DNA of 64,000 bases. It comes from a virus. Of the stretch, positions 17,502 to 47,035 are shown in pieces. Location: positions 14,216 through 78,215 of IMG/VR virus record IMGVR_UViG_3300048839_000424. One strand, given 5' to 3'. Position 1 is the stretch's first letter. Every line of letters starts with the position of its first letter. Made by a program: the position numbers and the translations under genes. The notes beneath the pieces are model-generated. The model was not told the DNA's origin and searched no databases. It saw only the letters and a list, made by a program, of their open reading frames with translations.

Positions 17502-19032
17502 AAAAGTCCACCACGGATTGCAAGCAAGAAAAGGGCTACTGAAAGGTGCCCTTGATTTGTCACGTCTCGTAGGGGTTACATACGGCCCCTACGGTCGTAA
17601 TGTCGTTCTTGACCGTCCCGTAGGGATTCTATCTACCAAGGATGGCGTCACCGTTGCTTGGGAATACGAACCTCAAGACCCGGTAGAACGCATGGGAGTT
17701 CGAATCGTACAGGAGGCGTGCTCGAAAGTCTCCAAGTCCGCTGGAGATGGGACAACAAGTACGGCGGTTCTGATCGGAGCTATCTTGCGAGAAGCCCATA
17801 AATGGGTCGTGGCAGGAAAAGACCCTATGCTCATCGCTCAAGAGATGCAGACGTTCGTGCAGGAGAGCCTGGAGGAGATGTTGAATCTCTGGAAACGTGA
17901 TGTAAGCACGGACACGGACCTACTAACCGTTGCATTAAGAGCCTGTAACGGAGATAGGGAACTAGCAACGGCGTTGGTTCAGGTCATGGGCAAGATCGGA
18001 ACGAAAGGCGTCGTTGTTCTGGAAGAAGGAAAATCCCGAGAGATCGAGATGGTTTTCAAGCAAGGGTTAGAAACTGACAGAGGTTGGGAGAGTTCGGATT
18101 TTTGTCCCTCGGATGACAGTAAGGTGTTTTTCGAGTTGCCCTTGGTCGCTCTGGTAGATGACGTGTTGGAGAAAGCCGAGCAGGTAGTTCCTATCCTCGA
18201 AGAAGCCTCCCAGTTTCCGCATCCTTTGGTGATCGTGTCCAAGGGCATGTACGGGGATGCGTTGAAAACACTCCTCATGAACCAAGAAACGGTGAAGTCC
18301 TGTGGGGTTCGTTGCATGGGACATCATGAGTTCATGAGAACACATTTAGAGGATTTAGCGGCGATATCGGGAGCAACCGTGTGGGCTAAAGAGTTGGGGG
18401 AATATAAGGCGGAGTATCTAGGTTCTGTTCAAACGGTCACGGTCAAGAAGGAGTCCTCGACATTCGTTGCTTTCCCTGATAAAAATGAGCAAGTAGCGAT
18501 GAGAATCCGTCAACTGGAGAATCAACTCGTAAGCACGGAGAGTGTTTTCGAGCAAGATAAGCTCAAGGAGAGAATCGCCAAACTTTCGGATGGGTTTTGT
18601 CTTTTGAGAGTCGGTGGGGATACGGAGTTAGAGATCAAAGAACGTCGTGGAAGATTGGAGGATGCTTTGTTTTCCATGAGATTAGCGGTAGAGCATGGGG
18701 TGGTTCCGGGGGGTGGGCTTACCTTTTTCAAGGTTGGTCAGTTGTTGGAGGATGCGGATAGCATTGGAGAGCGGATACTATCTGTGGCTTTGAAGGAACC
18801 ATTCCGCAAGATTTACAGTAATGGTGGTAAGAGTCCTCGCGTGTTAGAGGCTCAAATGGAGTATGTTCCAGTAGACTCTTGGGTAGGGTATACTCTTGAT
18901 GGGATACGGGATGTGTCTCAAGGTAAGGGATTGTTAGATTCGGCATCCTCTGTGTTAGAGGTGATTCGAGTTTCTGTTTCGACCGCGAGTACTATTCTTA
19001 CCTCAGAGGTTTCGATTACGAGTATCAAATGA
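17479..19032 (+). CDS. groEL: Phage-encoded GroEL/Cpn60-like chaperonin
   Basis: VTYGPYGRNVVL, TKDGVTVA, AGDGTTSTAVL, KLKERIAKLSDG and GVVPGGG motifs; no GGM tail. Confidence 0.93.
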   Translation: MAKKTTSKKVHHGLQARKGLLKGALDLSRLVGVTYGPYGRNVVLDRPVGILSTKDGVTVAWEYEPQDPVERMGVRIVQEACSKVSKSAGDGTTSTAVLIGAILREAHKWVVAGKDPMLIAQEMQTFVQESLEEMLNLWKRDVSTDTDLLTVALRACNGDRELATALVQVMGKIGTKGVVVLEEGKSREIEMVFKQGLETDRGWESSDFCPSDDSKVFFELPLVALVDDVLEKAEQVVPILEEASQFPHPLVIVSKGMYGDALKTLLMNQETVKSCGVRCMGHHEFMRTHLEDLAAISGATVWAKELGEYKAEYLGSVQTVTVKKESSTFVAFPDKNEQVAMRIRQLENQLVSTESVFEQDKLKERIAKLSDGFCLLRVGGDTELEIKERRGRLEDALFSMRLAVEHGVVPGGGLTFFKVGQLLEDADSIGERILSVALKEPFRKIYSNGGKSPRVLEAQMEYVPVDSWVGYTLDGIRDVSQGKGLLDSASSVLEVIRVSVSTASTILTSEVSITSIK

Positions 19033-20039
19033 GTGACAAATACAAAATCATACACGGAAATATGCTTGAAGTGTTGAAAACACTTCAAGAAAATAGCATC
19101 GACGCCATCGTTTGTGATCCACCCTATGAAATCAATTTCATGGGCCGAGGTTGGGACAAATCCGGCATCGCATTCCAAAAAGAAACATGGGCTGAATGTT
19201 TAAGAGTATTGAAGCCGGGAGGCTATTTAGTAGCATTTGGAGCGGCGCGAACGATGCATCGCATCACATGCGCGATTGAGGATGCCGGTTTCGAAATTCG
19301 AGACACGTTGCAGTGGGTTTTTGGAAATGGGTTTCCCAAGTCGCTGGACGTTGGTAAAGCTATTGCGAAACGTGCAGGCGGCGAAATCGAAGCGCGTGCA
19401 GCTATCGAGTGGATGAAGCGCGAACGGGAGAGGTTGGGTCTTTCCCGTGCAGCTCTTGAAGTCCGCATTTTCGGGCGCTGTGATGGCAACGTGAGGAACT
19501 GGGAGGACGCCATTTCGCTACCAAGGCCGGGGCTTTGGCCGCAGATTCGCGCGGCACTCGGGCACGGTGCGACGCTGTTCGACGCTGTGATGGAGAGGGG
19601 TGACGAAAAGGTAGGTGAGACAACCGGATCTTATGGGTATCAAGCTGACGGGTCTAGGTGGAAAAAGCCACGCGAGTTGCGAGAGCCGAACACAGAAGCA
19701 GCGAAAACCTGGCACGGCTACGGCACCGCACTAAAACCAGCGCACGAGCCGATCACGCTGGCCCGAAAGCCCTTACAGGGCACGGTCGCCGCGAACGTGG
19801 CGAAGTGGGGAACGGGCGGGATTGACGTTGACGGGTGTCGGGTCGGGGAGAGCAAGCGCGTGCCTGGTAACGCTAGCTGTGCTAGCGAGTATAAAGTGGG
19901 GCACATCGCAGAGGGTCACTACCTCAAGGGGCTAAGGTATCTAGCGGAAGGTGAGAGTTCCGGTAACGGTCCCAACGTAGGCCGCTGGCCGCCGAACCTC
20001 ATCATCGACGACGGCGCGGGCGAGGATCGCCCATGCTGA
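19029..20039 (+). CDS. Beta-class N4C/N6A DNA methyltransferase, N-terminal plus middle part (DPPY) with an inserted XRE-type HTH; lacks the SAM-binding FxGxG half
   Basis: IVCDPPY, LRVLKPGG, GFPKS, GYGTALKPAHEPI and GRWPPNL present; no HPTVKP/DPFxGSG; out-of-frame remnant tail ARIAHAE..DLNELFG* at 20020-20082. Confidence 0.85.
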   Translation: MSDKYKIIHGNMLEVLKTLQENSIDAIVCDPPYEINFMGRGWDKSGIAFQKETWAECLRVLKPGGYLVAFGAARTMHRITCAIEDAGFEIRDTLQWVFGNGFPKSLDVGKAIAKRAGGEIEARAAIEWMKRERERLGLSRAALEVRIFGRCDGNVRNWEDAISLPRPGLWPQIRAALGHGATLFDAVMERGDEKVGETTGSYGYQADGSRWKKPRELREPNTEAAKTWHGYGTALKPAHEPITLARKPLQGTVAANVAKWGTGGIDVDGCRVGESKRVPGNASCASEYKVGHIAEGHYLKGLRYLAEGESSGNGPNVGRWPPNLIIDDGAGEDRPC

Positions 20040-20058
20040 GGGAGAGATTTCGTTAGAG

Positions 20059-20082
20059 GATTTGAATGAGTTATTCGGATGA
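20059..20082 (+). repeat. Dispersed 24-bp repeat encoding DLNELFG-stop (copy 1)
   Basis: GATTTGAATGAGTTATTCGGATGA; near-identical copies at 29720 and 31700. Confidence 0.9.
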
Positions 20083-20375
20083 GGATTGTATCAGTGATAA
20101 GGAAGCCCTTTGAGGGATCGACAACGCAAAACGTGTTGGTTCATCATGTCTCGTGTATCAACATTGACGGGACCACCCATCAAACTCACGGTGCGGGAAG
20201 CAACGGGATTTATGGGAAGTATGCTGCCATTCAAAGCAACAAAACACGAGGACAGGAACTTGGCCGTTGGCCAGCAAACTTGATTTTGAGCTACCCAGAG
20301 GGTGTTGAGACATTGAATCAACAAACAGGGTTGGAGTACAATGGGGCAAGGTTCTTCAGGAATGTTCTGCTATGA
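20079..20375 (+). CDS. Stand-alone middle segment of a beta-class DNA methyltransferase (copy B1)
   Basis: MRIVSVIRKPFEGS..NV..INID..GRWPANLIL..GARFF; paralogue of 30218..30826; ATG coupled to the DLNELFG stop. Confidence 0.75.
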   Translation: MRIVSVIRKPFEGSTTQNVLVHHVSCINIDGTTHQTHGAGSNGIYGKYAAIQSNKTRGQELGRWPANLILSYPEGVETLNQQTGLEYNGARFFRNVLL

Positions 20376-21190
20376 AACGACTAGATCTAGTTCACTACCG
20401 CAAGGGGTCACTAACCTCCGACACGGTTGAAGCCCTCCGTCATTTGGAACTTCGTACCGCCAAAGCTGATAAGAGCTTTGTTCTTCATGTCTCATCCCGT
20501 GGGTTGGAATCCATGAAATGGGGTGAGGTTAGAGAAAACCCTGGTCCTACAGGATGCCGACCTGAATGGTCTGCGGTTCCTACGGGACGAGAGATTTACC
20601 TCCGATTGGAAATCAACGACGACCAAGGACACCCAGACTCAAAGCGAGAAAGAGAACTTGCCTTGCTCTGGGGGTTGGCAATCCCTCTTGGTTTTACCCC
20701 GTGGGTTCGTTACCCCCTCCCTGGTCCCGGTGATGATGTGTTTCACTACTATGGACCGTGGAGATCGTTGATGGACAGTTTGATGGGAATGGGTCGTGGT
20801 GAGGAAGCATGGCCAAGTTTCTGTTGTGCAGCACAGGTTGATGTCGGTGCTTGGGAGGGGAATAGACCTACCGAGCGATTTGTTCAAGCGCAGTTACACC
20901 GTATGGGATACAATCATGGTCCCGTAGATGGAATGGTTGGACCTCGAACAGAGACGGCTCTCAAGGGGGCTGGATTGCATGGGTTGGCCTTATCAGAGGC
21001 GGCAAAAAAACTCACCTCTCTGGAGTCTAAACCAGCCCAGCGGACGAAAAAAAGGAAGGGGCATATCGTTCTCCCGGAGACTAATTTCTCTATAACTTCC
21101 TATGGACAGGTGAGAACAATCCAAACGGCTCAGGGGGCTGCGGTCGAACTAGATGGCCCTGGTCGGATTATCATCACCACGCAGGAATAA
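20372..21190 (+). CDS. Peptidoglycan-binding protein (PG_binding_1) with a degenerate M15-peptidase-like N-terminus
   Basis: VQAQLHRMGYNHGPVDGMVGPRTETALK matches the PG-binding consensus. Confidence 0.7.
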   Translation: MKRLDLVHYRKGSLTSDTVEALRHLELRTAKADKSFVLHVSSRGLESMKWGEVRENPGPTGCRPEWSAVPTGREIYLRLEINDDQGHPDSKRERELALLWGLAIPLGFTPWVRYPLPGPGDDVFHYYGPWRSLMDSLMGMGRGEEAWPSFCCAAQVDVGAWEGNRPTERFVQAQLHRMGYNHGPVDGMVGPRTETALKGAGLHGLALSEAAKKLTSLESKPAQRTKKRKGHIVLPETNFSITSYGQVRTIQTAQGAAVELDGPGRIIITTQE

Positions 21191-21831
21191 TGACGAGATT
21201 ACACGAAAAGGTCGCATGGGCATGGTTAGACCGATTGCTCGGAAAGAAGGTCGTTGAGCCATCTCCCTCCGTGAACTCTGATTTGTCTGATGCACAGAAA
21301 AAAGCGATCATTGATGACTCGTACCAGAGGATCAAAAAAGACCTCCTTGCGGCTCTGAAAAACGGTCATGCGGAGATTTTTCAACAAGCGGAGAGAGCGG
21401 GTCGTAGGTGGGGAGTACAACCATTGTTTCTCCTCTATTTCCTCGCTGAAGGAAAAAACTGGCCATCACGTCTTGATGCTACGGTGAAGGAAAAGCTGCG
21501 ACTACTTCAGGCTCTTTTACTGAACTTTGGCGTGGCGGAGTTCTATCCGAACGAGATGGGGGAGTTCCCTGATTGGGACAGATTGACTTCAGCCATGATG
21601 GAGATGGGGACATATGGGTGGGGTGTTGTGGTCTGGAAGATTATCGTCCCGAGCTTTAATGCGGCGGTGAGTCGTGAGGCAAAGCGGGTGCTTCATATCT
21701 TCAAAAGACCGGGGGGTTCTAAAAACCCGGACGCTTTTTGGTATCTCTCCAAGTACTTCCAGAAGTCCTGGTGGCACGATAACATCCCCTACAAGCATAT
21801 CATCCTGATGCTGACTAAAGAACTGTTCTGA
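21190..21831 (+). CDS. Hypothetical protein
   Basis: 213-aa ORF; AGGA RBS; coupled to the upstream stop. Confidence 0.6.
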   Translation: MTRLHEKVAWAWLDRLLGKKVVEPSPSVNSDLSDAQKKAIIDDSYQRIKKDLLAALKNGHAEIFQQAERAGRRWGVQPLFLLYFLAEGKNWPSRLDATVKEKLRLLQALLLNFGVAEFYPNEMGEFPDWDRLTSAMMEMGTYGWGVVVWKIIVPSFNAAVSREAKRVLHIFKRPGGSKNPDAFWYLSKYFQKSWWHDNIPYKHIILMLTKELF

Positions 21832-21851
21832 AGGCGTATAATGCCTGACGT

Positions 21852-24800
21852 ATGGATGAGGCATTAAAAGTAGCGTATGAGAAATTGAAAGAGATCCGGG
21901 GTCGCAAGGATCTCGCCCTCAAACCCAACAAGTACCTCAAGGACACCTTTACGGGATTTGATGGGCAGGAGTATCCGTTCAAGCTACGGTACTACCAAGT
22001 CCAAGGGGTTCTTCACATGGTTGTGATGAATCGTTTTCTTCTTGGGGACGACACCGGCACAGGAAAGTGCCAGCCGTATGATTCTCTTGTTCTGACTGAC
22101 AGGGGTCTCCTAAAGATGGGGGAAATCGAAGATTGGTCAGACATGACACCTGATAGCTTTCGCCCTATGAGCAAAAGCCTTCATGTGTTAGTAGATGGGG
22201 AAAAACTCCCCATCAAGAGCTTTTACTATGGTGGGGTCAAGTCTACGGTTACGGTCCATACTAGGTATGGGTTTAAAAACACTGGGTCACAAGTTCACCC
22301 AATGTTAGTTCTTCGGGATGGTTCCCATCAATGGGTGCAGGCTAAAGATCTGATTGAGGGGGACTATCTTTGTATTGAGAGACGTGAGATGTCCTTCCCC
22401 GAGAGTGAGCCCAAGCTAATCGGGAAAGGCCCCTTGGAAGAGGTAACACCTGATTTTGCTCGATTTGTGGGTTACTACATTGGACGAGGTACTCTAATAG
22501 CTAGAGACCAGATAAGTGTCTCCCAGTACCCAGTGAACCCCCCCGAGGTGCTTGCAGACATTATCCGTGTTATGGGTTCAGTTTTCAATAAGGTTCCCTC
22601 ACATCTTAAGGGAATAGACTTGAGTGTCTGTGACACGAGAGCACGACGGTGGTTGGTTGAAAATGGTATGGGTTATCTGAAATCTGCATACCGAGACATT
22701 CCTGACTGTATTCTCCAGGCTTCAAAAACTAGCACTCAAGAGTTTTTACGAGCCTTTTTTGAGGGAGCGGGGCACGTGGATAAGTCCATCGAACTTACCA
22801 CCACATCAAAAACACTAGGGGAGCAGCTACAAGTCCTACTCCTGAGATTTGGTGTAGTAGCTAAGAGAGAAAAGGTCTATAGTCAAGGGGTCTATGGTCA
22901 AGAGGGTCATGTTTATTGGCGCCTGACTATATGTGATAGAGAAGCCGAAATCTTTCGTGACCAGATTGGGTTTGTGTCCTCTCGAAAAAAGGAGGCTTTA
23001 AATGCACTCGTCGATTGCAGTACGCCTCTTTTGAACACGTCGTATTTTTACGACCCTGTTGTAGAGATAGAACAAGGGGAAGAAGAGGTTTTTGACATTG
23101 AAGTGGATGACCCTCGTCATTGTTTCGTCAGCAATGGGTTTGTCAATCACAATACTGCGATGGCTATTTCATCCTATGCCTACGTCTTAGACAAAGAGCC
23201 GAATACGAAAGCAGTAGTGCTTACGAACAAGTCCGTGGTTGGTCAATGGGCCTTGGAATTCGAGAAGTTCACGAAACCGGGGATGATTCGAGTCATCCAA
23301 GTAAGTGGAACCCCAAAGAAGCGGGAAGCCGCTTATGAGGAGTTCAAGAATAGTCAAGGTCCAACCGTGATGATCATGGGATATGCGACTGCGCGACAGG
23401 ATGTCAAACAGCTTCAAACCATCAAGGACTACATTTTGATCACGGACGAAGCGAGTGCCTACAAGAACCCTTCCTCCCAGATTCACCAAGTCGTTCGGTT
23501 CATGGCGAATCAACAGGCGAAGCGCGTCTGGGCTCTCACAGCAACCCTGATCAAGAACAATCTAGTCGAGGGGTATGGGATCTATTCAGTCCTGTGTCCG
23601 GGATTGTTCCCCCCAACGAAAAATGCGTTCATCAACTCGTATGCAATCACGAGGATGCAGAAAATCGCGGGCTCTAATCGCCAAGTCCCGGTCATTGTAG
23701 GATATCGGAAGGACCACATTGAGAACTTCCGTAACAAAATTGACCCCTTCTTCCTGTCTCGGTCCAAGATGGACGTGGCTTCGGAACTTCCCGTGTTGAC
23801 GATTAGGGAGGACAAGGTAGCGTTGACGCCCGAGCAACAGACGAAATACCAGGAGGCTTTGGATGGTCTCCTAGAGATTGATACGACGGGTGAACAGAAG
23901 GAGACGACAAAACTCACGAGTCTAATCTACTGCCAACAAATCGTAGACCACCCGGACTTGATTGACTGTGAGGGGGGCTCGTACAAGATGGACCACTTGT
24001 TCGACATTCTCACGGAGGGCGATTTGGCAGGTGAGAAGGTCATTGTGTTCTCGCGGTTCCGCAAGATGATCGACCTCCTGGAGAAAGAGGCGAAGAAAAA
24101 GAAGATCACATCGGTGAGAATCACTGGTGCTGAAACCAAGGAGGAGGTGCGAAAGGAAGCGATGCAAAAGTTCCAGGATCCAAACTCTGATGTTCAGGTC
24201 TGCTTTATTACTACAGCGGCAGCAGAGGGAATTAACCTCCAAGCGGCGAAAGCCATCGTTTTCTTCGACTCTCCTTGGTCCGCTGGAGATTACCTTCAGT
24301 GTTTAGATGAGGATACAGAAATATTGACTCAAAGAGGTTTTGTGGGTCGTACCTCTATTAAAGAGGATGATTTAGTTGCTGCAATGAACACTCAAACCTC
24401 TGAAATTGAATGGCAGCCGATTCGTTCTATTACTGATCGTCCACGAGCGCAAGACGAACAAATGTATGAAGTCTCTACGAGACATGTAAATATACGTGTC
24501 ACAGGTGGACATCGTATGTTGTATAGAAGAAAAACGCTTAGAAACAACGTAGCGGTTTGGCCTATGGGGTGGGAAATTGAAACCGCTGAACAAATGGCAG
24601 TAGAGAAAACTCATTATCAAATCCCTGCCGCTGGTGAACAAAATTCAAAGGGGTTACCTCTCACTCAAGATCAACTTGAGTTTATAGGTTGGTTCTTGTC
24701 TGACGGTTCCCTTAACAAATCAAACCATCAATTGGTAATTTCGCAAGCAATACATCAACCTCAGATTGTAGATTTACGGCGATGCATTGAAAATTGTGGG

Positions 24801-25607
24801 TTTGATTGGAGCGAGTACAACCGAGATCCCAAAATGACTAAAGGATTTCCAAATGGTAAACCTCAAATAGTCTTCTCTATCCCCAAAGGAACACAAAACG
24901 GCACTCGTGCAAGGAAAGGATGGAAAGAACTAGAACCTTACCTTGACAAAGAGTTGTCACCCTTGTTAGAGGATGTAACCCCCGAACAATTAAGTGCCCT
25001 GCTCCGAGGGTTGCATCTAGGGGATGGGAGTAAATATAGAGGTGACAAGTGGAATCAAGCCTCTTATCACATTTTCACTGGAAGAAAGGTTTTTGCCGAA
25101 AGACTACAGAGCTTGTGTGTTAGACGCGGTTTTCGTTGTAATCTCTCTATTCGACAGGCTGCACCTGGAAGAAAAGAAGGGTACACACTACATATAAAAA
25201 AGACTAATGCGTGGTCTCTATGTGGAAATAAAAAAATGATAGGGCGCTCTCATATGTCCCCTTCCAAAAACATAGAACATGAGAGAGTATGGTGTGTTGA
25301 AAATGATTTGGGTACGCTCGTAACACGTCGTCGTGGAAAAGTAGCTGTTGTAGGAAATTGTATTGGGCGAATGATTCGCATTGGAAGTCAGCATGATCGT
25401 TGCTATGCGATTCACTTGGTCGCTTCGGGTACGATTGATGAGGATGTCATTGTGACCTTGAAGAAGAAGATGAAACTCGTAGAGAAAATCATGGGCAAGA
25501 GGTTGAAGGGTGAGAAGGATCAGGATGCCGTCATCGAGGCGGAAAACGACATCTCTGACCTATTTGATTCCGTCCGTGCGAATGCTCGAACTCGTAAGTA
25601 CAAGTGA
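21852..25607 (+). CDS. SNF2-family helicase/ATPase containing two inteins
   Basis: LRYYQ, GDDTGTGK|T, ITDEAS, LTATLIKN, KVIVFSRF, AEGINLQAA and Q|CIGRMIRIG motifs. Confidence 0.92.
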   Translation: MDEALKVAYEKLKEIRGRKDLALKPNKYLKDTFTGFDGQEYPFKLRYYQVQGVLHMVVMNRFLLGDDTGTGKCQPYDSLVLTDRGLLKMGEIEDWSDMTPDSFRPMSKSLHVLVDGEKLPIKSFYYGGVKSTVTVHTRYGFKNTGSQVHPMLVLRDGSHQWVQAKDLIEGDYLCIERREMSFPESEPKLIGKGPLEEVTPDFARFVGYYIGRGTLIARDQISVSQYPVNPPEVLADIIRVMGSVFNKVPSHLKGIDLSVCDTRARRWLVENGMGYLKSAYRDIPDCILQASKTSTQEFLRAFFEGAGHVDKSIELTTTSKTLGEQLQVLLLRFGVVAKREKVYSQGVYGQEGHVYWRLTICDREAEIFRDQIGFVSSRKKEALNALVDCSTPLLNTSYFYDPVVEIEQGEEEVFDIEVDDPRHCFVSNGFVNHNTAMAISSYAYVLDKEPNTKAVVLTNKSVVGQWALEFEKFTKPGMIRVIQVSGTPKKREAAYEEFKNSQGPTVMIMGYATARQDVKQLQTIKDYILITDEASAYKNPSSQIHQVVRFMANQQAKRVWALTATLIKNNLVEGYGIYSVLCPGLFPPTKNAFINSYAITRMQKIAGSNRQVPVIVGYRKDHIENFRNKIDPFFLSRSKMDVASELPVLTIREDKVALTPEQQTKYQEALDGLLEIDTTGEQKETTKLTSLIYCQQIVDHPDLIDCEGGSYKMDHLFDILTEGDLAGEKVIVFSRFRKMIDLLEKEAKKKKITSVRITGAETKEEVRKEAMQKFQDPNSDVQVCFITTAAAEGINLQAAKAIVFFDSPWSAGDYLQCLDEDTEILTQRGFVGRTSIKEDDLVAAMNTQTSEIEWQPIRSITDRPRAQDEQMYEVSTRHVNIRVTGGHRMLYRRKTLRNNVAVWPMGWEIETAEQMAVEKTHYQIPAAGEQNSKGLPLTQDQLEFIGWFLSDGSLNKSNHQLVISQAIHQPQIVDLRRCIENCGFDWSEYNRDPKMTKGFPNGKPQIVFSIPKGTQNGTRARKGWKELEPYLDKELSPLLEDVTPEQLSALLRGLHLGDGSKYRGDKWNQASYHIFTGRKVFAERLQSLCVRRGFRCNLSIRQAAPGRKEGYTLHIKKTNAWSLCGNKKMIGRSHMSPSKNIEHERVWCVENDLGTLVTRRRGKVAVVGNCIGRMIRIGSQHDRCYAIHLVASGTIDEDVIVTLKKKMKLVEKIMGKRLKGEKDQDAVIEAENDISDLFDSVRANARTRKYK
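22068..23153 (+). mobile_element. Intein (362 aa, LAGLIDADG-type remnants) in the SNF2 Walker A motif
   Basis: Begins CQPYDS, ends FVNHN followed by T; FLRAFFEGAG block. Confidence 0.92.
24300..25358 (+). mobile_element. Intein (353 aa, LAGLIDADG) in SNF2 helicase motif VI
   Basis: Begins CLDEDTE, ends VVGN followed by C; IGWFLSDGS and LRGLHLGDG blocks; visibly AT-richer than the exteins. Confidence 0.9.
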
Positions 25608-25623
25608 AGGGAGTATAAGGAGA

Positions 25624-26496
25624 ATGAGTAGGAACCCCTTTGCGGACCCCGCTTGTCCGAAATGTCACGGGCGTGGGTTTATTTATGCCGAGTCCATGTT
25701 AGATGGTGGGCGCTATTGTGAGTGTACGATGGAGGGGATGCGAGTCCAAAATATGACTCGCATCTGGGAATCCTTGGAATCAGCCAAGGAGATCTCGGTG
25801 TTGCGGAACGACCCCCCGCTCAAGAGATTCCTCAAAAAGTCCTGTCGAATCACGGCGCCCGTAGCTCTCTTTAAGGCTCATTTGAAGGCATTGGCGTACA
25901 ATATGCCTACGGCATGGAATGCTCGTGTCCATACGGATGCAGAACTCCTAGACGTATGGTTTGGCACCCTGAAGGCACAGGGGATGAAAATATACGACTT
26001 CGAGATTGAAAACTCGACGTTGAGGGCTATTGACATTCGAGACCTCGTAGAGCCCCATGACCTTTGCATCATCCTCATGGGGGTCAAGAAACTTCCCAAC
26101 AAGGAGGCGCCATCGAGCTTAGCGGAGGCGATTTCTTACCGGAACCACTTGGACAAACCCACTTGGGTGATCGACCAACCGGACTTACCTTTGGATGGTA
26201 ATCACAGATATCACAATCAGGAAGTCGAACGCATGTTGGCGAAATGGCCGCATGTAGTTCTCTCCGGCCCGAATGTAACGGTGACCAACGAACCACGTAC
26301 AAACTCTCCGGTGGCAACAAATGCTCTAGCGACCGTAGATGACCTACTGGTAACCGAGGATGGGCTTCAAGAGGAAGAAGAGGAGCTATTCGAGGAGGAC
26401 GTAGTTTCTGCCCCTCAAACGAAGAATTTGCTTTCGACATTGACGGTAGAATCGAAGTCCAAGAAGCCCTGGAAAGGGAATAGGCCCAAGCGATGA
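25624..26496 (+). CDS. Degenerate DnaC/IstB-like helicase loader with N-terminal Zn finger
   Basis: CPKCHGRG..CEC; HDLCIIL and ISYRNHLDKPTWVI resemble DnaC segments; no Walker A; lies directly upstream of dnaB; AAGGAG RBS. Confidence 0.55.
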   Translation: MSRNPFADPACPKCHGRGFIYAESMLDGGRYCECTMEGMRVQNMTRIWESLESAKEISVLRNDPPLKRFLKKSCRITAPVALFKAHLKALAYNMPTAWNARVHTDAELLDVWFGTLKAQGMKIYDFEIENSTLRAIDIRDLVEPHDLCIILMGVKKLPNKEAPSSLAEAISYRNHLDKPTWVIDQPDLPLDGNHRYHNQEVERMLAKWPHVVLSGPNVTVTNEPRTNSPVATNALATVDDLLVTEDGLQEEEEELFEEDVVSAPQTKNLLSTLTVESKSKKPWKGNRPKR

Positions 26497-28058
26497 AGAT
26501 TTTACTTCGATCCGTATTCATTGTCAATGCGAGTGACAGTGAGCAGTTGTTTCTCCAGAATTACCATGCCTTGGTTGAGTCCGGGCTTGGTTTTGACATG
26601 CTGGAGGACATCAATATTTGGAAGTTCATTCAGGATTTCTATCAGGGGCATGGTCACCTGCCTACACTCCAGACGATTCGTTCTCACTTCGAGCGCGTTC
26701 AGGAGCTAGAAGTTGTTGACCGTCTTGAACGCTTGGCGATGGAGTCCCCGAAAACTCGTGGTGACTTTATTTCGTTCTTGGAGACTCAGGCGGAAGACCG
26801 TCGTGTCAAAATCGTCATGGAACTTGCCAAGGAAATGGCGACCATCGCCCAAACGGGTATCGACGTAAAGGACAAGGGCGGGAAGAACTCCAAGAAGTTC
26901 CTTGGGGCCGTAGATGCCATCCGGTGGGTTCTCGATCGTTCGCATGAGCTAGTCTCTCCGACGCTGGGAAGTCGTCTCTCCGGCAATGTGGCGACCGATG
27001 GGGAGACCTTCATCACCCGGTATGAGCGCGTCAAATCGGACCCACAGTTTGGGATTGGGTGTTATACGGGGATTCGACAGGTAGACGATGCCTTGAAAGG
27101 GGCAAAGCGGTACGAGCTTTGGATTCACGCAGGATTCACGGGTTCGTTGAAGTCTAGTCTTGCTCTCCAGTGGGCCTACAATCAAATGGTCTACTACCGC
27201 AATTCGACCCTGTATTTTTCGTTGGAGATGCCTTACATTCAGTGCATGAACATGCTCTATGCGATGCACACGGCACATGAAAAGTTCGCACAGATTCGAG
27301 CGCAGTTGGGGATTCAAGATATCGGGCTCGACTACGAGCGGATGAAAAATGGTGTCCTAGCTCCCCATGAGGAGAAGTTCCTGTTCGATTACGTAGTTCC
27401 CGATTTCAACAAAAAATCCACGGTACCGGCGACGGGTCCATATCCCGTAGAGGCTCATGAGTATGGGGATATCTACATCGAGGTTGCTGACCCTGACAAA
27501 ACGGACTTCACGGTTTTGGAGCTACGAGCCAAGGCGGAGTTGATTTATTCCAAAACGCCGTTCAAGATGGTCGTGGTGGACCATGTGGGTTTGATGTCAC
27601 CACGGGAGCGATATGGGTCTACTACGGAGAAGATCAATGAGGTAGTTCGAGACTTGAAAAAACTAGCCATGAGTTTCAACCGGGGTATGGGTATTGCGGT
27701 CGTTGGGTTGGCTCAGTTATCTCGTGAGGGGTATCGAGCCGCTGAAAAGAACGGTGGTAAGTACAACTTGACTCACTTGAGTTATGCCAACGAGATTGAG
27801 CGTTCCGCTGACATTGTGACGGCGACTTGGATTGATGATGACCTGAAAAAAATCAACCGTGGTATTATTCAGTGTTTGAAGTCTCGTGACCAGGCACCAT
27901 TTGAACGATGCCCTCTTCGGGTAGAGTTCTCATGTCGTCGAATCACAACGGACAATACGTCCATTGATGAGATTGAGAACAAAATTCAAGCAAAGCGGGG
28001 GGACATAGACAAGATCAAACCCCACAAGTCGAAAGTACCTGACCTTGGAGACATATGA
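26493..28058 (+). CDS. dnaB: DnaB-like replicative helicase
   Basis: HAGFTGSLKS P-loop, YFSLEM, VVVDHVGLM, LAQLSRE and IERSADIV motifs. Confidence 0.9.
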   Translation: MKILLRSVFIVNASDSEQLFLQNYHALVESGLGFDMLEDINIWKFIQDFYQGHGHLPTLQTIRSHFERVQELEVVDRLERLAMESPKTRGDFISFLETQAEDRRVKIVMELAKEMATIAQTGIDVKDKGGKNSKKFLGAVDAIRWVLDRSHELVSPTLGSRLSGNVATDGETFITRYERVKSDPQFGIGCYTGIRQVDDALKGAKRYELWIHAGFTGSLKSSLALQWAYNQMVYYRNSTLYFSLEMPYIQCMNMLYAMHTAHEKFAQIRAQLGIQDIGLDYERMKNGVLAPHEEKFLFDYVVPDFNKKSTVPATGPYPVEAHEYGDIYIEVADPDKTDFTVLELRAKAELIYSKTPFKMVVVDHVGLMSPRERYGSTTEKINEVVRDLKKLAMSFNRGMGIAVVGLAQLSREGYRAAEKNGGKYNLTHLSYANEIERSADIVTATWIDDDLKKINRGIIQCLKSRDQAPFERCPLRVEFSCRRITTDNTSIDEIENKIQAKRGDIDKIKPHKSKVPDLGDI

Positions 28059-28660
28059 ACCTGACATTAAAACACGGTGATTGCGTAGAGCGATTGAAAG
28101 AAATCGAGTCGAACTCCGTAGATGCGGTCATTTGCGATCCGCCCTATGATATCGCGTTCATGTCTCGAAAATGGGATGATGAGAACACGTTGACGAACGA
28201 GGCGATCTGGCGCGAGTGTTACCGGATTTTGAAGCCAGGGGGTGAGATTCAAGCCTTTGCGGCAACAAGAACCTTTCATCGGTTAGCGAGGACGTTCAAG
28301 AACATTGGGTTTGAGGGTATGCGATTAAAAGCCTTCACCTATGGGAGTGGATTTCCGAAATCTACGAATATATCGAAGCAGATTGACAAACGAGCCAAGG
28401 CGGAGAGGAAGGTCGTGGGGTTCAAAAAAGGGGTTGGTGGTCAGAACTTGAATGACCTCGTGAACAACCGGGATGAGATCCGTAGTACGGATCAGGAAGG
28501 TGGTAAGGGGGTTGGAGCGTATGGGACGGGAGCGAAGCAAGTCGCAGTAGATGTACCTATCACGGAACCAGCGACACCGGAAGCCAAGCTCTGGGACGGG
28601 TATGGTACAGCCTTGAAGCCCGCATGGGAACCTATTGTCGTGGCCAAGAAACCTCTGTGA
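28055..28660 (+). CDS. Beta-class DNA methyltransferase, catalytic N-terminal half only (piece A2)
   Basis: HGDC, VICDPPY, YRILKPGG, YGSGFPKS; stops after GYGTALKPAWEPIVVAKKPL; no FxGxG. Confidence 0.85.
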   Translation: MNLTLKHGDCVERLKEIESNSVDAVICDPPYDIAFMSRKWDDENTLTNEAIWRECYRILKPGGEIQAFAATRTFHRLARTFKNIGFEGMRLKAFTYGSGFPKSTNISKQIDKRAKAERKVVGFKKGVGGQNLNDLVNNRDEIRSTDQEGGKGVGAYGTGAKQVAVDVPITEPATPEAKLWDGYGTALKPAWEPIVVAKKPL

Positions 28661-28672
28661 GTGATATAAAAA

Positions 28673-29743
28673 ATGAGCGAGAATAATATAAAATCCCCAT
28701 TCCCATATTTCGGCGGTAAGAGATTGATTGTAGATATGGTTTGGCAGCGCCTCGGAAAGCCAAAACAGTACATTGAACCATTCTGCGGAAGCGCGGCTAT
28801 GCTGCTCGGTGCTCCGTCTCCGGCATCTCTGGAGGTGATCTGCGACGGGTCCGGGTTCATTGCAAATTTTTGGCGCGCAGCAAAGCACCAGCCCGCCGCT
28901 GTTGCTGAACATGCCGATTACATTGTAAGCCACATCGACCTCGGAGCGCGGCATCGGTGGCTGATGGATCAGCGCGACCGCATCGGAGAAATCTTGCAAG
29001 ACCCCGATCACCCAGGCGATGCGAAGGTCGCGGGGTGGTGGCTATGGGGCCAGTGTTTATGGATCGGTAGTGGCTGGTGCGATTGGGACAAGACGGGACA
29101 GATCCCGCACGTCAGCGACGCCGGGAGGGGCGTGCAGGCGATCGGCAAGATCCCGCACGTCAGCGACGCCGGGTGTGGCGTGCAGGCGATCGGCCAGATC
29201 CCGCACGTCAGCGACGCCGGGAGGGGCGTGCAGGCGATCGGCAAGATCCCGCACGTCAGCGACGCCGGGTGTGGCGTGCAGGCGATCGGCCAGATCCCGC
29301 ACGTCAGCGACGCCGGGATGGGCGGCCTCATGACCAGTTCGGGCCGCGCCGCGTGGGTCGCCCTGCACGCACTCGCGGACAGGCTGGAGCGATGCCGGGT
29401 CATTCACGGAGACTGGTCGCGCGCTATGAATCACCATTATGGCGGGAACAACACAGCGGTGTTCCTTGACCCGCCATATGTCGCATATGAGAATCTCTAC
29501 GGCGTAAAACATCCGGTAGCACTTGATGTCGCAGAGTGGGCCAGGAAGCACGCTCATCTTCGCGTTGCTCTGTGCGGGCACATCGGAGACTACGAAATGC
29601 CGGGGTGGGACGCCGTGCCGTGGGAAAGGTCGCGATTGACATACGGCGGGGCATCGACCAAGGCGAGCGAGTGCATATGGTTCTCACCTGCATGTTTTCC
29701 ACCACCAGATGAATCGAAGGATTTGAACGAGTTATTCGGATGA
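28673..29743 (+). CDS. Dam/D12-family (alpha-class) adenine DNA methyltransferase with an internal 16-aa tandem repeat
   Basis: KSPFPYFGGKR, YIEPFCGSAA and VFLDPPY motifs; ends DLNELFG. Confidence 0.88.
   Translation: MSENNIKSPFPYFGGKRLIVDMVWQRLGKPKQYIEPFCGSAAMLLGAPSPASLEVICDGSGFIANFWRAAKHQPAAVAEHADYIVSHIDLGARHRWLMDQRDRIGEILQDPDHPGDAKVAGWWLWGQCLWIGSGWCDWDKTGQIPHVSDAGRGVQAIGKIPHVSDAGCGVQAIGQIPHVSDAGRGVQAIGKIPHVSDAGCGVQAIGQIPHVSDAGMGGLMTSSGRAAWVALHALADRLERCRVIHGDWSRAMNHHYGGNNTAVFLDPPYVAYENLYGVKHPVALDVAEWARKHAHLRVALCGHIGDYEMPGWDAVPWERSRLTYGGASTKASECIWFSPACFPPPDESKDLNELFG
29101..29317 (+). repeat. 48-bp coding tandem repeat, about 4.5 copies in alternating A-B-A-B pattern
   Basis: GATCCCGCACGTCAGCGACGCCGGG(AGG/TGT)GGCGTGCAGGCGATCGGC(AA/CA), encoding IPHVSDAG[R/C]GVQAIG[K/Q]. 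Confidence 0.95.
29720..29743 (+). repeat. DLNELFG-stop repeat (copy 2)
   Basis: GATTTGAACGAGTTATTCGGATGA. Confidence 0.9.
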
Positions 29744-29771
29744 TTCTCATCCGTAATCCATTAGGGGGTCC

Positions 29772-30221
29772 GTGACTTCCGAGTTGCTGATTTGTATAGG
29801 AGGAATTAGAACTCCTCCTGTGGATGTGGAATCCTTGGTCAAATGTCTTGGAGTATCTGTAATTTACAAGGACAGTGTAGAGGTTTCACGACTAGAGGTT
29901 AATGGTAACCAGGCTACTATTGTTGTGAACTCAAATGCTTCCAAGCAACGCCAGAGATTTGCTTTAGCGCATGAACTTGGGCATTTGTTGAGACATGACC
30001 TTACGAAACCAACATGCCATTATGATTTCAGAGGGCATGCTGCGATAGAGCGAGAGGCTAATATTTTTGCAGCCTCTCTTCTTATGCCAAGGTCTATGCT
30101 GGGGTTGTATCTTGGGTACACAAGCCTTGATCTCGACCAGATCGGCCGGGTTTTTGATGTACCACGAACTACTTGTGAGTACCGAGTAGCGCACTTTCTC
30201 CGTGGGTATCGTGATTTATGA
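29772..30221 (+). CDS. ImmA/IrrE-family (DUF955) Zn metallopeptidase
   Basis: RQRFALAHELGHLL (HExxH) and EREANIFAASLLMP. Confidence 0.9.
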   Translation: MTSELLICIGGIRTPPVDVESLVKCLGVSVIYKDSVEVSRLEVNGNQATIVVNSNASKQRQRFALAHELGHLLRHDLTKPTCHYDFRGHAAIEREANIFAASLLMPRSMLGLYLGYTSLDLDQIGRVFDVPRTTCEYRVAHFLRGYRDL

Positions 30222-30826
30222 GAGTAGTATCAGTGATAAGGAAGCCCTTTGAAGGGTCTGCGACTCAAAACATCGTAATCAATGAATGTGGTGGGTTGAA
30301 CATTGATGCCACTCGCATTGGAGGAGAACCTTCACCGTCAGTAGATAGACGTAAATATTCTCCAAAAGAGTGCGTTGGCGCTACAGGATGGACAACGCCA
30401 GCACGTCCAGCATCGTACAATGAACAACGCGCAGGTGAGCAGAGTGGCCGATGGCCAGCGAATCTGATGTTAGTACATACGCCTTTGTGTGTCTTTGAGG
30501 GTCATGTAAAGCAGAAGGGGTACATGATTAATCGTTGGACTGACGGTGCGAAACCTTTCGGTGGGGGAGCGGGACATGACTATGCGGGACAGCAGCAAAA
30601 CGATCTGAATGTAGAGTCGTGGAAATGTCATCCGACTTGTCCTGTTTCCCATATGGACTCTCAAAGTGGTGTTTCTAAATCCTCCGGTGGAAGAATAGGT
30701 AACGCTCAGGGGGTATACTCGAACCAAGGTCGCACTGGATGGGGTACAGGACATCAAGCGGGAGACCCTGGGTACGGAGATAGTGGTGGTGCATCACGGT
30801 ATTTCAAGCAGGTAAGGAGCAAATAA
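30218..30826 (+). CDS. Stand-alone middle segment of a beta-class DNA methyltransferase (copy B2)
   Basis: VIRKPFEGSATQN, GGLNIDATRIG, GRWPANL and GYGDSGGASRYF; neither DPPY nor FxGxG present. Confidence 0.8.
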   Translation: MRVVSVIRKPFEGSATQNIVINECGGLNIDATRIGGEPSPSVDRRKYSPKECVGATGWTTPARPASYNEQRAGEQSGRWPANLMLVHTPLCVFEGHVKQKGYMINRWTDGAKPFGGGAGHDYAGQQQNDLNVESWKCHPTCPVSHMDSQSGVSKSSGGRIGNAQGVYSNQGRTGWGTGHQAGDPGYGDSGGASRYFKQVRSK

Positions 30827-31723
30827 ATGTCACAAGAACCGGAAGAACTAAAATCCTATCTCCAACGCTTGATCTCCCCACCGGAACAAGTTGGCCCTAT
30901 CGTCATCGTCGAGGACGACCTCTCCCAAGTGGACTTTGCCTCCTATGCGGATTCCTCAGTCCACGGATTGATCACAAAGGGGAACCCAGAGAAGTATTTC
31001 GACGAAATCGACCGTATTCTGCGTCCCGGTGCCCACATTCTCCTGATCTCGGAGCAAGATGACATCAACTTCGAGGGCACTTGTGCTTTGGAGGATAGGG
31101 GGTACGAAGTCCGTGACAGCATTTGCCTCTTGGACTCTCCAGCGGATGAGTTCCTGTACACGACGAAAGCCTCCAAGTCTGAAAGGAACGCAGGTGTTCC
31201 TGAATACACCAATACAGTAGAACAAGCCGTGATTAAAGACGGTCTATCTGATGACCTCTATGCCGATATTCTCTTCCACTTGGAGGAAAATGGGTTCGAT
31301 TCCAGTAGCGAGGATGCCTACAAGTCTCTGAAGGGGAAGAAAATCGACCTGAAGCTCATTAGCAAGGAGTACTTGGAGCACTTCGACATTGTAAATACGG
31401 TGACTCAAGTCGTGCAGAATAATCACCCAACGGTCAAACCGATCTCTATTATGGAATTCTTGATGCAAGACTTGCCCCAGGGGGGTATTGTTGTAGACCC
31501 TTTCATGGGGTCTGGGACAACGGGTATTGCTTGTGTCAGAACGAACCATCAATTCGTTGGAATTGAGCGCGAGGCGGAGTATATTCGTATTGCTGATGCT
31601 AGAGTTCGGCATTTCATTGCCGAGAAGCTAGATTCGGTTGTCTTTGGTATAGTTTCGGAGGCACCCGCATCGCCATCCCCCATGTCTCAAATCGAGGATG
31701 ACCTGAATGAGTTATTCGGATGA
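30827..31723 (+). CDS. Beta-class DNA methyltransferase SAM-binding C-terminal piece fused to a catalytically degenerate N-domain (piece C)
   Basis: KASKSER, NNHPTVKP, VVDPFMGSGTTG and FVGIERE motifs; ITKGNP where DPPY is expected; ends DLNELFG. Confidence 0.85.
   Translation: MSQEPEELKSYLQRLISPPEQVGPIVIVEDDLSQVDFASYADSSVHGLITKGNPEKYFDEIDRILRPGAHILLISEQDDINFEGTCALEDRGYEVRDSICLLDSPADEFLYTTKASKSERNAGVPEYTNTVEQAVIKDGLSDDLYADILFHLEENGFDSSSEDAYKSLKGKKIDLKLISKEYLEHFDIVNTVTQVVQNNHPTVKPISIMEFLMQDLPQGGIVVDPFMGSGTTGIACVRTNHQFVGIEREAEYIRIADARVRHFIAEKLDSVVFGIVSEAPASPSPMSQIEDDLNELFG
31700..31723 (+). repeat. DLNELFG-stop repeat (copy 3)
   Basis: GACCTGAATGAGTTATTCGGATGA. Confidence 0.9.
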
Positions 31724-34395: not shown

Positions 34396-36294
34396 ATGCA
34401 GACACCGGACCAGATCGTGGACTTGCTGATGGCGGCTAAGGACGCCTATTATAACGGCGATCCTATCATGACCGATGCGGATTTCGATGCCTTGGAGGAT
34501 CGTCTCCGAGACCTGAATCCCAAGCATCCGTATTTCCGTATGGTCGGCGCAGCGGCGCCAACGGATACGAAATGGAAGAAAATGCTCCATAGCATTCCGA
34601 TGGGATCTTTGGACAAGGCACAGGACCATGCGGAAGTCGTTTCTTGGTATCAGCCGGACAAGGGAAACCTTGTTGTTACTGAGAAGCTAGACGGAATTTC
34701 CATCTCCCTCGAATACGAGGATGGGGTTTTTGTTCGTGCGATCACCCGAGGTGATGGTATCGAAGGTGAGGATATCACCCGTAACGTGATGCTCATGGAT
34801 TTCCCGAAGAAGGCTTCGAACCTGACGGGACATGTCCGTGGAGAGATTATTCTCACCAAGGCGAACCATGTTCACCTTCCAGAGTACAAGAATCTCCGCA
34901 ATGCCGCAAGTGGCATCGCCAAGCGTGAAAAAGACGCAGAGGCGTGCAAGTACCTTTCGGTCATGGCGTACCAAGTGATCTCCAAGGAACTAGTTTTCCC
35001 TCGTAAGGAGACGGAGATCCTGGTTCTCCAGAAGCTCGGATTCACAACCCCCAACTACACCCTTGCAACCTCCTTGGAGGAAGTCGAAAATACCTACGAG
35101 GTATATGTCCACTCGATTCGTGAGGGGCTGAACTACGATATTGATGGACTGGTTGTCGAGTATGACGATTTGTCGGTGATGGAGGAACTTGGGGTAAGCT
35201 CATCGGGCCGTCCACGAGGGGCCATCGCGTACAAGTTCCCACATGAGGAAAAAACCGCGACCTTGGAAATGATCGTGTGGCCTACTGGTCCTACGGGTCG
35301 AGTGACCCCCGTGGCGAAGTTCTCTCCGGTGGATCTGATGGGTGCGACGGTGGCCAAGGCTTCTTTGCACAATGTTGGAAATATTCAGCGGATCACGAAT
35401 AAGCAGGGGTTCCGTATTGGAGACAAGATCACGGTTTCTCGTCGAAATGACGTGATCCCTTATGTAGAGCGGCTTGTTTCTGCCGGTAAGGGCGAGAAGC
35501 TAGAGACTCCGACCGTGTGTCTCTCGTGTGTTCATCCGTTGACGCGGGTTGGTGAGTATCTGGTCTGCCAGCAAAAGAACAACTGTCCAGCACAGATTCT
35601 TGGTAAGCTGACCAATTGGGTCAAAAAGACCAATACGATGGATGTCGGTCCCGCGATTTTGGAAGCGGCGGTCAACGCAAGTCTTGTGTCATCTATCTCG
35701 GACTTGTACGGTCTGGCGGAGTCAATGTGGCGTAAGCTCAAGCTCGAAGGTCGGGTCATGGGAGACCTTGGGGCCATCGTGTATAATTCAATCATGGGCA
35801 ACACGGTTCTACCACCGGAGATTATTCTCGGCAGCCTGAATATTGACCTTTGCGGTCGAACCACCTGCAAGACCATCCTGGATAGTATCTCCTACAAGCC
35901 GGGCTCGGTGGCGGATTTGACTCTAATCCCCACCAAGGTCTCATTCGACCAGTTGTCCAAGATCCCTGGCATCGGACCACAGAGGGCTAAGGCGTTTCTC
36001 GATGGTATCACAGAAAACCACGATGAGATCCTCGAACTTGCTCACTTTTTGAGTTTCCCCAAGCGTATCACTAGCGGCAAGGTTCTCGGTAAGACCTTTT
36101 GCTTCACTGGATTCCGAGATCCCGCACTGGAAGCTCGAATCCAGAAGGAAGGCGGAGAAATGAAGTCTTCTGTCGTCAAGGGACTGGACTACCTCGTGGT
36201 AAAGGACAAGAGCACGTCGTCAACGAAGGCTCAAAAGGCGCAGTCCCAGGGTACGATGATCGTGAACCGTCAAGAGCTAGAGGCCATGCTATGA
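34396..36294 (+). CDS. ligA: NAD+-dependent DNA ligase
   Basis: DADFDALE, EKLDG, TRGDG..GEDIT, RNAASG, DGLVV, TGRVTPVA, C4 Zn finger and C-terminal BRCT (FCFTG). Confidence 0.97.
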   Translation: MQTPDQIVDLLMAAKDAYYNGDPIMTDADFDALEDRLRDLNPKHPYFRMVGAAAPTDTKWKKMLHSIPMGSLDKAQDHAEVVSWYQPDKGNLVVTEKLDGISISLEYEDGVFVRAITRGDGIEGEDITRNVMLMDFPKKASNLTGHVRGEIILTKANHVHLPEYKNLRNAASGIAKREKDAEACKYLSVMAYQVISKELVFPRKETEILVLQKLGFTTPNYTLATSLEEVENTYEVYVHSIREGLNYDIDGLVVEYDDLSVMEELGVSSSGRPRGAIAYKFPHEEKTATLEMIVWPTGPTGRVTPVAKFSPVDLMGATVAKASLHNVGNIQRITNKQGFRIGDKITVSRRNDVIPYVERLVSAGKGEKLETPTVCLSCVHPLTRVGEYLVCQQKNNCPAQILGKLTNWVKKTNTMDVGPAILEAAVNASLVSSISDLYGLAESMWRKLKLEGRVMGDLGAIVYNSIMGNTVLPPEIILGSLNIDLCGRTTCKTILDSISYKPGSVADLTLIPTKVSFDQLSKIPGIGPQRAKAFLDGITENHDEILELAHFLSFPKRITSGKVLGKTFCFTGFRDPALEARIQKEGGEMKSSVVKGLDYLVVKDKSTSSTKAQKAQSQGTMIVNRQELEAML

Positions 36295-46610: not shown

Positions 46611-47035
46611 AGACTCAGTACACATTCGTGATTTCCGGGGGTGATCCTTTGACGTTACAGTTGAGGGGGTGTCCACCTATGCGATATGAGGGTCCGGGGT
46701 CTACGGTGTTCCATGTCATTTGCACGCGGGAGGAAGCTCTTCATGTTGAGATGACTTTCAAGGAAGCCCACTGCAAGGTCGTTGTCCATACGCATGGGGA
46801 GACGGTCGAGCAGAAACAAATGAGGGTCAATCTTCTTGCATTACAGGGGGAGAACAGTTTTCCGACGAAAGACTGTCCCTCTTGCCCTTGGTTTGATCCC
46901 GAGATTTCAGGTCTCTGTGGGGCTGGTAAGACTGGGAGTGAGCAATACTCCGAAGCTGTGATTAAACATCAAATGAAGTCGGAGCGATTTAAGGACGCCT
47001 ACAACAACTGCACATGGGACACGAAATCAAACTGA
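46607..47035 (+). CDS. Hypothetical protein with CxxC
   Basis: 142-aa ORF; ATGA overlap. Confidence 0.6.
   Translation: MKTQYTFVISGGDPLTLQLRGCPPMRYEGPGSTVFHVICTREEALHVEMTFKEAHCKVVVHTHGETVEQKQMRVNLLALQGENSFPTKDCPSCPWFDPEISGLCGAGKTGSEQYSEAVIKHQMKSERFKDAYNNCTWDTKSN

Follow-up and report, generated by a model that had tools for sequence, protein, structure and literature searches.

In beta-class DNA amino-methyltransferases, the target-recognition domain sits between the half of the protein that carries motifs IV-VIII and the half that carries motifs X and I-III. Described enzymes of this class (PF01555), including CcrM (6PBD), M.BceJIV (8URK), M.RsrI (1EG2), M1.HpyAVI (5HEK), and the phage proteins of PHROG 67, hold these parts in a single chain. 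We analyzed a locus with the same motif order in a 64,000-nucleotide (nt) stretch of viral DNA (hereafter, the window), which spans bases 14216-78215 of the 78-kb IMG/VR virus record IMGVR_UViG_3300048839_000424. At positions 28055-31723 of the window, a beta-class methyltransferase is encoded by three genes, A2, B2, and C, each with its own start and stop codon. With a probability of about 0.72, we consider these genes to specify a naturally split beta-class amino-methyltransferase of three polypeptides in which B2 is the target-recognition piece. Relative to the single-chain enzymes, this locus differs in its division into three genes, in an extra noncatalytic N-half within C, and in a middle piece unlike the solved recognition domains.

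Separate chains that reassemble into a methyltransferase fold have a precedent in M.AquI and M.EcoHK31I, which are natural two-polypeptide cytosine-5 (C5) methyltransferases, with the break in M.AquI falling in the variable region (PMC3404938). Fragment complementation has also been shown for M.BspRI, M.BsuRI, M.HhaI, and M.SssI (PMC3404938). Whereas the M.AquI and M.EcoHK31I type is a C5 enzyme in two pieces, with one fixed specificity each and no free recognition subunit, the genes described here encode an amino-methyltransferase in three pieces, and their relatives carry arrays of alternative middle pieces. Separate specificity subunits are known from Type I (HsdS) and Type IIB (BcgI B) systems (PMC3592466). 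The likeness lies in a separate DNA-reading polypeptide that has variable regions between conserved docking regions and a catalytic methylase as its partner. However, there is no sequence relationship, the partner is gamma class in those systems and beta class here, and no restriction subunit is found here. The C5 methyltransferases of Bacillus phages SPR, phi3T, and rho11s are multispecific, with tandem recognition domains inside one polypeptide. They resemble the present system in having several recognition modules per catalytic core, presumably against several host restriction systems, but here the recognition modules are separate genes of a beta-class enzyme.

A full-text literature search did not turn up any beta-class enzyme described as split and served by free recognition subunits, and a comparative survey of jumbo-phage methylases describes no such split enzyme (PMC7824862). 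If our reading is correct, phages with large genomes would need little coding capacity to guard their DNA against many restriction systems, and the B family, which is large, viral, and without a family name, would be lifted out of the "hypothetical protein" category. The enzyme would also provide a natural scaffold whose DNA specificity is altered by swapping a module of ~200 amino acids (aa) or just a 40-residue segment, which would be of interest for methylome engineering. The window offers both a clean case of the three-gene layout, with an allele pair that is informative, and a decayed second locus that shows module gain and loss.

Three genes carry the motif series of one methyltransferase

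The original prediction, an earlier note on this DNA, proposed a heteromeric methyltransferase divided into A2, B2, and C, with further pieces A1 and B1 at a second locus, and all five genes are present where it placed them (Table 1). A2, A1, and C match PF01555 and solved beta-class structures by sequence. The catalytic motif IV tetrapeptide DPPY, which is invariant in our alignment of the A family, is found in A2 and A1 and is absent from C. After DPPY, A2 continues with GFPKS, a conserved GAYGTGAKQ insert, and ALKPAWEP and ends in EPIVVAKKPL, so that its stop codon lies one residue past the RKP-type motif (here, KKP). B2 begins with MRVVSVIRKPFEGS, and its N-terminal strand is a second copy of the RKP strand that ends A2; it ends in GGASRYFKQVRSK, with GGASRYFKQV at the C terminus. 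C contributes KASKSER, HPTVKP (motif X), and DPFMGSG (motif I), the last two of which are invariant in the C-family alignment, and ends in DDLNELFG. The gene order A2, B2, C reproduces the motif order of fused relatives, in which the motif IV half, the recognition region, and the motif X/I half follow one another. By analogy with known enzymes, the DPPY motif suggests that the methylated base is N6-adenine.

In place of the one polypeptide typical of PF01555 enzymes, the window has three open reading frames (ORFs), with two unrelated genes, unmentioned in the original prediction, for a Dam-like methyltransferase and an ImmA-type peptidase lying between A2 and B2. The stop codon of the ImmA gene overlaps the B2 start (ATGA), an arrangement of translational coupling. 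Because A and B directly adjoin in some relatives (loci L086 and L097), we consider the insertion of the Dam-like and ImmA genes to be secondary. The junction of ImmA and B was also observed in a stromatolite-metagenome contig from another study. Split-intein, read-through, and frameshift explanations of the break between A and B were excluded, as 1.5 kb and two genes separate A2 from B2; Pfam searches of A2, B2, and C also gave no Hint or intein match, and the facing chain ends of A2 and B2 read KKPL and MRVVSV.

Table 1. Positions in the window of the methyltransferase genes, related repeats, and neighboring genes
Feature	Position	Strand	Description
Cpn60-like chaperonin	17479-19032	+	
A1, single-chain-type methyltransferase gene	19029..20039	+	336 aa; DPPY; PF01555 profile positions 1-89
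Methyltransferase tail remnant, out of frame (+1), ending EGEISLEDLNELFG and stop	20038..20082	+	15 codons; stop overlaps B1 start (ATGA)
26-nt repeat AGGATTTGAATGAGTTATTCGGATGA (tail, stop, next start)	20057..20082, 29718-29743 (96%), 31698-31723 (88%)	+	
B1, mini middle piece	20079..20375	+	98 aa; RKP strand, NIDG, GRWPAN, ARFF
DnaB-like replicative helicase	26493..28058	+	PF03796; 4-nt overlap with A2; synteny anchor directly upstream of A2
A2, catalytic N-terminal half	28055..28660	+	201 aa; PF01555 profile positions 1-73
D12/Dam-like (alpha-class) DNA methyltransferase	28673..29743	+	PF02086, TIGR00571; between A2 and B2; C terminus DLNELFG
M78 ImmA/IrrE-type metallopeptidase, HELGH	29772..30221	+	PF06114, E 6.5e-20
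B2, stand-alone middle piece, putative target-recognition subunit	30218..30826	+	202 aa; own ATG
C, cofactor-binding half	30827..31723	+	298 aa; PF01555 profile positions 33-219, E 3e-17
NAD-dependent DNA ligase	34396..36294	+	Downstream synteny anchor common to relative L087
Family-A DNA polymerase with intein splicing, Hint, and LAGLIDADG domains	39465-44237	+	
Small intact single-chain PF01555 methyltransferase	47014..47817	+	C terminus SVFDLFGDE

The split is conserved and under purifying selection in uncultured phages

The single-chain template that the original prediction had assumed does exist, as ~70 IMG/VR loci and protein P0102 carry DPPY..LKPAxEPIxxARKP..NIDxxR..GRWPAN..HPTxKP..DPFxGSG in one frame of ~350-450 aa. 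Divided forms are found in many other uncultured phages. The top ~100 homologues of A2 are ~200 aa long and 50-70% identical to it and end at EPVVVARKP(x), on contigs of up to 618 kb. Among the 57 A genes in 80 metagenome loci, 36 end 0-11 residues past RKP, most of them 0-3 residues past it, and the others are fused. A search with B2 against 1.8 billion representatives gave, among its best 150 matches, ~43 stand-alone proteins that align from residues 1-200 to residues 1-200 and ~12 longer proteins with B at the N terminus, mostly B-C fusions that start at the same residue; the remainder have B internally and include fused A-B-C forms. Stand-alone C and B-C forms are both frequent among the homologues. 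The GenBank phage collection gave zero DNA matches, and its only protein matches were distant ones, to single-chain methylases of mycobacteriophages and to one uncultured, unannotated phage of 485 kb. In single-sequence scans of IMG/VR, B2 had no match and C matched one distant locus.

In the closest relatives, the gene order is dnaB, A, zero to two unknown genes, B-C, and then one to six more tandem B genes. L087, L092, and L109 contain seven, six, and four B starts, respectively, versus one A and one C. In L097 and L098, C precedes A and a run of B genes (C, A, B, B..). B genes of the arrays start with ATG or GTG on MR(V/I)VTVARKP and end in GGASR(F/Y)FKQV. To gauge selection on the pieces, we compared L087 with L092, for which the ratio of nonsynonymous to synonymous substitution rates (dN/dS) was 0.14 for DnaB, 0.26 for B-C, and 0.17, 0.18, and 0.27 for the stand-alone genes Ba, Bd, and Bf. 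Two other pairs gave ratios of 0.46 and 0.68 and are probably not orthologous. These values indicate that the split pieces are under purifying selection.

The conservation of the break bears directly on whether a single-chain gene was simply broken by the Dam-like/ImmA cassette and a nonsense codon, leaving the pieces as pseudogenes. Two foreign genes between A2 and B2 and the lone in-frame TAA between B2 and C are what such decay would leave behind. Yet dozens of diverged phages have A genes with this end and B genes with this start, A and B lie directly side by side with nothing inserted in L086 and L097, the stand-alone B genes have the low dN/dS given above, and B and C are again called as separate genes in relatives (82% and 94% identity). 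We therefore regard decay as a highly improbable account of these genes and a serious one only for the locus of A1 and B1. The claim that the pieces did not arise by random decay stands for A2, B2, and C, where the break is conserved and dN/dS is low, and most likely fails for the other locus, where A1 and B1 carry deletions.

Some A genes of relatives show other interruptions. In L098, L108, L113, L115, L116, L119, L120, and L154, an in-frame stop or a change of frame breaks the gene immediately behind DPPY, and L123 and L126 have a ~320-aa insertion before the GFPKS region. Additional splits, mobile inserts, or errors of assembly could each account for these interruptions.

Middle pieces combine conserved ends with variable cores

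B2 is homologous to the middle of single-chain methyltransferases and to ~40 clusters of stand-alone proteins. Neither B1 nor B2 matched a Pfam family (E <= 0.01) or an NCBIfam family, so they do not belong to the Methylase_S family, and PHROG searches gave nothing beyond a weak match to the methyltransferase family phrog_3008. The ESM Atlas neighbors of B2 comprise 30 viral clusters, all without a Pfam family. Our alignment of the B family contains four invariant blocks, the RKP strand, NIDxxR, GRWPAN, and SRYF, with two variable regions between them. The layout of B2 follows this pattern, with the N-terminal RKP strand, NIDATR, hypervariable residues 37-76, GRWPAN, a module of His87, Cys91, Cys137, and Cys141, and the terminal GGASRYFKQV. 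These four His and Cys residues (B2 numbering; window positions 30476-30640) do not vary among 32 stand-alone B proteins, pointing to a metal-binding module that is missing from B1 and other mini-B proteins. When B2 was modeled alone, the predicted local distance difference test (pLDDT) score was 63.5, residues 34-77 were unstructured, and Foldseek returned no match in the PDB.

Comparison of B2 with its allele P0121 was informative about the hypervariable segment. Over ~165 positions outside residues 37-76, the two proteins differ at 8 positions, with full identity up to residue 36 and near identity from residue 77 onward; inside the segment, they are essentially unrelated. This pair points to a wholesale replacement of residues 37-76. 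Alleles of hsdS or mod show the same pattern where their recognition regions have been exchanged. The closest relatives of A2 and C, P0001 and P0271, are 99% and 94% identical to them, respectively. Because a 5.8-kb contig is recorded for the clusters of P0001 and P0271 and for P0121, all three may come from one relative strain.

Variable cores flanked by conserved ends, together with replacement of the variable region between near-identical alleles, would also be expected if the stand-alone B genes served mainly as recombination donors into an expressed B-C or A-B-C gene, in the manner of pilin or hsdS shuffling. Repeated DNA in the window fits such a cassette library as well. As the original prediction had noted, B1 and B2 share 5' DNA, which we find to extend over 54 nt at 83% identity and to include an identical core of 26 nt, and three copies of the 26-nt tail repeat are present. 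Moreover, one B is fused to C in most close relatives. On the other side, each B gene of L087 and L092 has an ATG or GTG start that is preceded by an AGGAG-type site and overlaps the preceding stop codon by 4 nt, which indicates translation, and purifying selection along the whole length is in keeping with expressed proteins. Neither inverted repeats nor a recombinase appeared beside the B arrays. Frequent gene conversion at the 5' ends of B genes was unsupported, as synonymous divergence between paralogous 5' ends is ordinary in L087 and L092, with ~50% identical codons at identical residues. Considering these results, we judge it unlikely that the stand-alone B genes are mainly donors, and we favor their expression as free subunits.

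C joins the cofactor-binding motifs to a noncatalytic copy of the N-half

C had been proposed as the gene for the part that binds S-adenosylmethionine (AdoMet). Its HPTVKP and DPFMGSG motifs agree with that role, but the protein also begins with a conserved copy of the N-half, which the proposal had not included. Within this copy, DPPY is replaced by VEDDL in the window and by SVHGLI-type sequences in the family, and the catalytic tetrapeptide is missing from C in 22 of the 22 aligned members. Because other blocks of the copy, such as RVLxPGAH and EDxGFEIRD, are conserved across these 22 members, we read it as a maintained noncatalytic module and not as debris. B2 and C lie in the same frame and are separated by a single TAA followed by ATG (30824-30829). 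In most close relatives, a sense codon keeps this junction open, which yields a B-C fusion of ~400-500 aa in which the internal Met is kept.

The presence of both halves of the fold in one C chain (Table 1) and the occurrence of C and B-C forms without A in some short loci raise the alternative that no A-B-C enzyme exists. C would then be self-sufficient or a regulatory methyltransferase-like protein, with A and B acting elsewhere as DNA-binding proteins or inhibitors. However, every aligned C lacks DPPY, A alone amounts to half a Rossmann fold, and A, B, and C co-occur in those relatives whose loci have enough flank. The three-chain model described below also completes the sheet between A and C. 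Independent functions of the three proteins are thus very unlikely, and we retain a joint enzyme as the better account.

C also shares its C-terminal end with other methyltransferases of this phage. The Dam-like protein, C, the small PF01555 enzyme, and the remnant behind A1 all have an acidic linker followed by an LFG-type tail. The DLNELFG copies behind A1, in the Dam-like gene, and in C are carried on the 26-nt repeat, with the VFDLFGDE of the small enzyme (47788-47817) excepted. C-type proteins from split systems of relatives end in an acidic linker and [ST]L(D/E)D(L/F)FG(x), whereas fused single-chain relatives do not. This tail resembles C-terminal sliding-clamp-binding peptides, such as those of T4 gp43 and PIP-type motifs, and might act as a docking peptide common to these proteins. 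A search of the 78-kb fragment gave no sliding-clamp family, a result that is uninformative as the fragment is ~15% of the genome.

A three-chain model places the sheet across A2 and C

We predicted the structure of C, B2, and A2 together from family alignments, with A2 as the partner and three controls. The three-chain combination scored 0.87 versus 0.48 for the best control. At least 65% of contacts agreed between runs, and the pLDDT of the partner was at least 71. Of the 80 solved complexes and 110 mismatched pairs used for calibration, 58 and 2, respectively, attained the mark; these counts are a rough guide here given the custom alignments and three chains. The tightest predicted contacts pair residues 221-224 of C, in the strand leading into DPFMGSG, with residues 23-26 of A2, in the strand before DPPY. 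This pairing would rebuild the central Rossmann sheet across two chains. Residues 26-31 and 78-83 of B2 are predicted to touch residues 183-187 (YGTAL) of A2. The model supports binding of A2 to B2 and C, short of demonstrating it, and is consistent with assembly of the three chains into one enzyme.

Proposed assembly and exchange of middle pieces

Together, the conserved break, the purifying selection on the pieces, and the three-chain model with its controls give good support to a heteromeric methyltransferase as originally predicted. We propose that A2 would supply the catalytic half, with motifs IV-VIII, and that C would supply motif X and the AdoMet-binding motifs I-III, with its noncatalytic N-half copy probably serving as a scaffold. 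B2 would dock by its conserved ends, with the RKP strand, NID, and GRWPAN set onto the YGTALKP region of A and the SRYF end at the C terminus, and would present hypervariable residues 37-76 to DNA. The locus lies within the replication gene block behind dnaB, and the Dam-like and ImmA genes have invaded it.

Several observations weigh against this proposal. The N-half copy already held by C bears on the stoichiometry of the complex and on the role of A beside that copy, and a model of C alone gave a template-modeling (TM) score of only ~0.23 to solved methyltransferases despite a match to beta-class enzymes by Foldseek probability, and is a poor guide to the packing of the two halves of C. Because structures of single-chain beta-class methyltransferases are solved, the three-chain model may have passed through its likeness to them. 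Similarity between B and the solved recognition domains was not detected, and the label "specificity subunit" comes from the place of B in the chain and its variability. Most close relatives fuse B to C, which leaves unexplained how the additional, unfused B proteins would come to a C half. Finally, the 78-kb record contains just one intact B, which is B2, as a search with the B profile gave no further B gene.

With regard to the wider occurrence of such loci, we give about even odds to a model in which, in a large clade of uncultured and mostly very large phages, a core of A and C accepts any of several free, rapidly exchanged B proteins. This arrangement would amount to a Type I-like sharing of tasks that arose within an orphan beta-class enzyme. 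One core would then provide self-protection at multiple sites and would possibly be held at the replication fork by the LFG tail. The B arrays suggest that several B subunits may share one A/C core, and evasion of several host restriction systems is what such sharing might achieve. The exchangeable middle subunits of the original prediction are supported by the arrays of relatives and by the swap between B2 and P0121. In this genome, combining A2 with B1 and C, or using A1 as a second catalytic piece, is doubtful because A1 and B1 carry deletions.

A1 and B1 most likely belong to a damaged copy

The second locus (19029-20375; locus 1) consists of A1, a methyltransferase tail remnant, and B1. 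A1 had been described as another piece cut at the RKP boundary, which our analysis does not bear out. Instead, A1 runs through RKP into a middle region of its own (NVAKWGTGGIDVDGCR; ARKPLQGTVAANVAKWGTGGIDVDGCR..GRWPPNLII), within which the B-family profile matches, and then stops without motif X or motif I. A shared break point at both loci therefore applies to the starts of the two B genes, each of which has an ATGA overlap with the preceding stop codon, and not to the end of A1. Between residues ~117 and 215 (19375-19670), A1 has a ~100-residue insert (LGLSRAALEVRIFG, with VRNWE) at the place of the GAYGTGAKQ insert of A2; by eye, this insert is putatively helix-turn-helix-like.

Decay, which we consider highly improbable for A2, B2, and C, is indicated at locus 1 by several observations. 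The tail that follows A1 in the +1 frame matches the C-terminal tail of both C and the Dam-like protein. In relatives' contigs from three runs, the match to the window ends at 20025/20026, and in other contigs, the match begins at 20014. Such a contig break is the expected outcome of an internal deletion between short repeats in the lineage of the window, and A1 looks to be truncated by an internal deletion in a single-chain gene. Relative to a close 107-aa relative, B1 has a 27-nt in-frame deletion that removes nine residues, including the Arg of NIDxxR, which is invariant in the B family. The 27 nt missing from B1 are present in contigs of three runs from two studies (an insertion at 20165/20170). 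Because A1 is truncated and B1 has a nine-residue deletion, locus 1 is most likely a damaged copy and not a second working set.

Source record and gene neighborhood

Because CheckV places the 78-kb source record at 15% complete, the phage is probably very large. Genes surrounding the methyltransferase locus are all on the + strand and closely packed, and promoter-like and terminator-like sites were no more frequent than expected by chance. The locus has synteny anchors on both sides (Table 1). Upstream, a helicase-like ORF of 1251 aa (21852-25607) has two putative Hint-like inserts that were recognized by eye. The Dam-like gene contains an in-frame 48-nt tandem repeat at 29100-29324, with 4.7 copies and 93% matches, that encodes IPHVSDAG(R/C)GVQAIG(K/Q) units between the FCGSA and DPPY motifs of that protein and may represent a recognition region of variable length.

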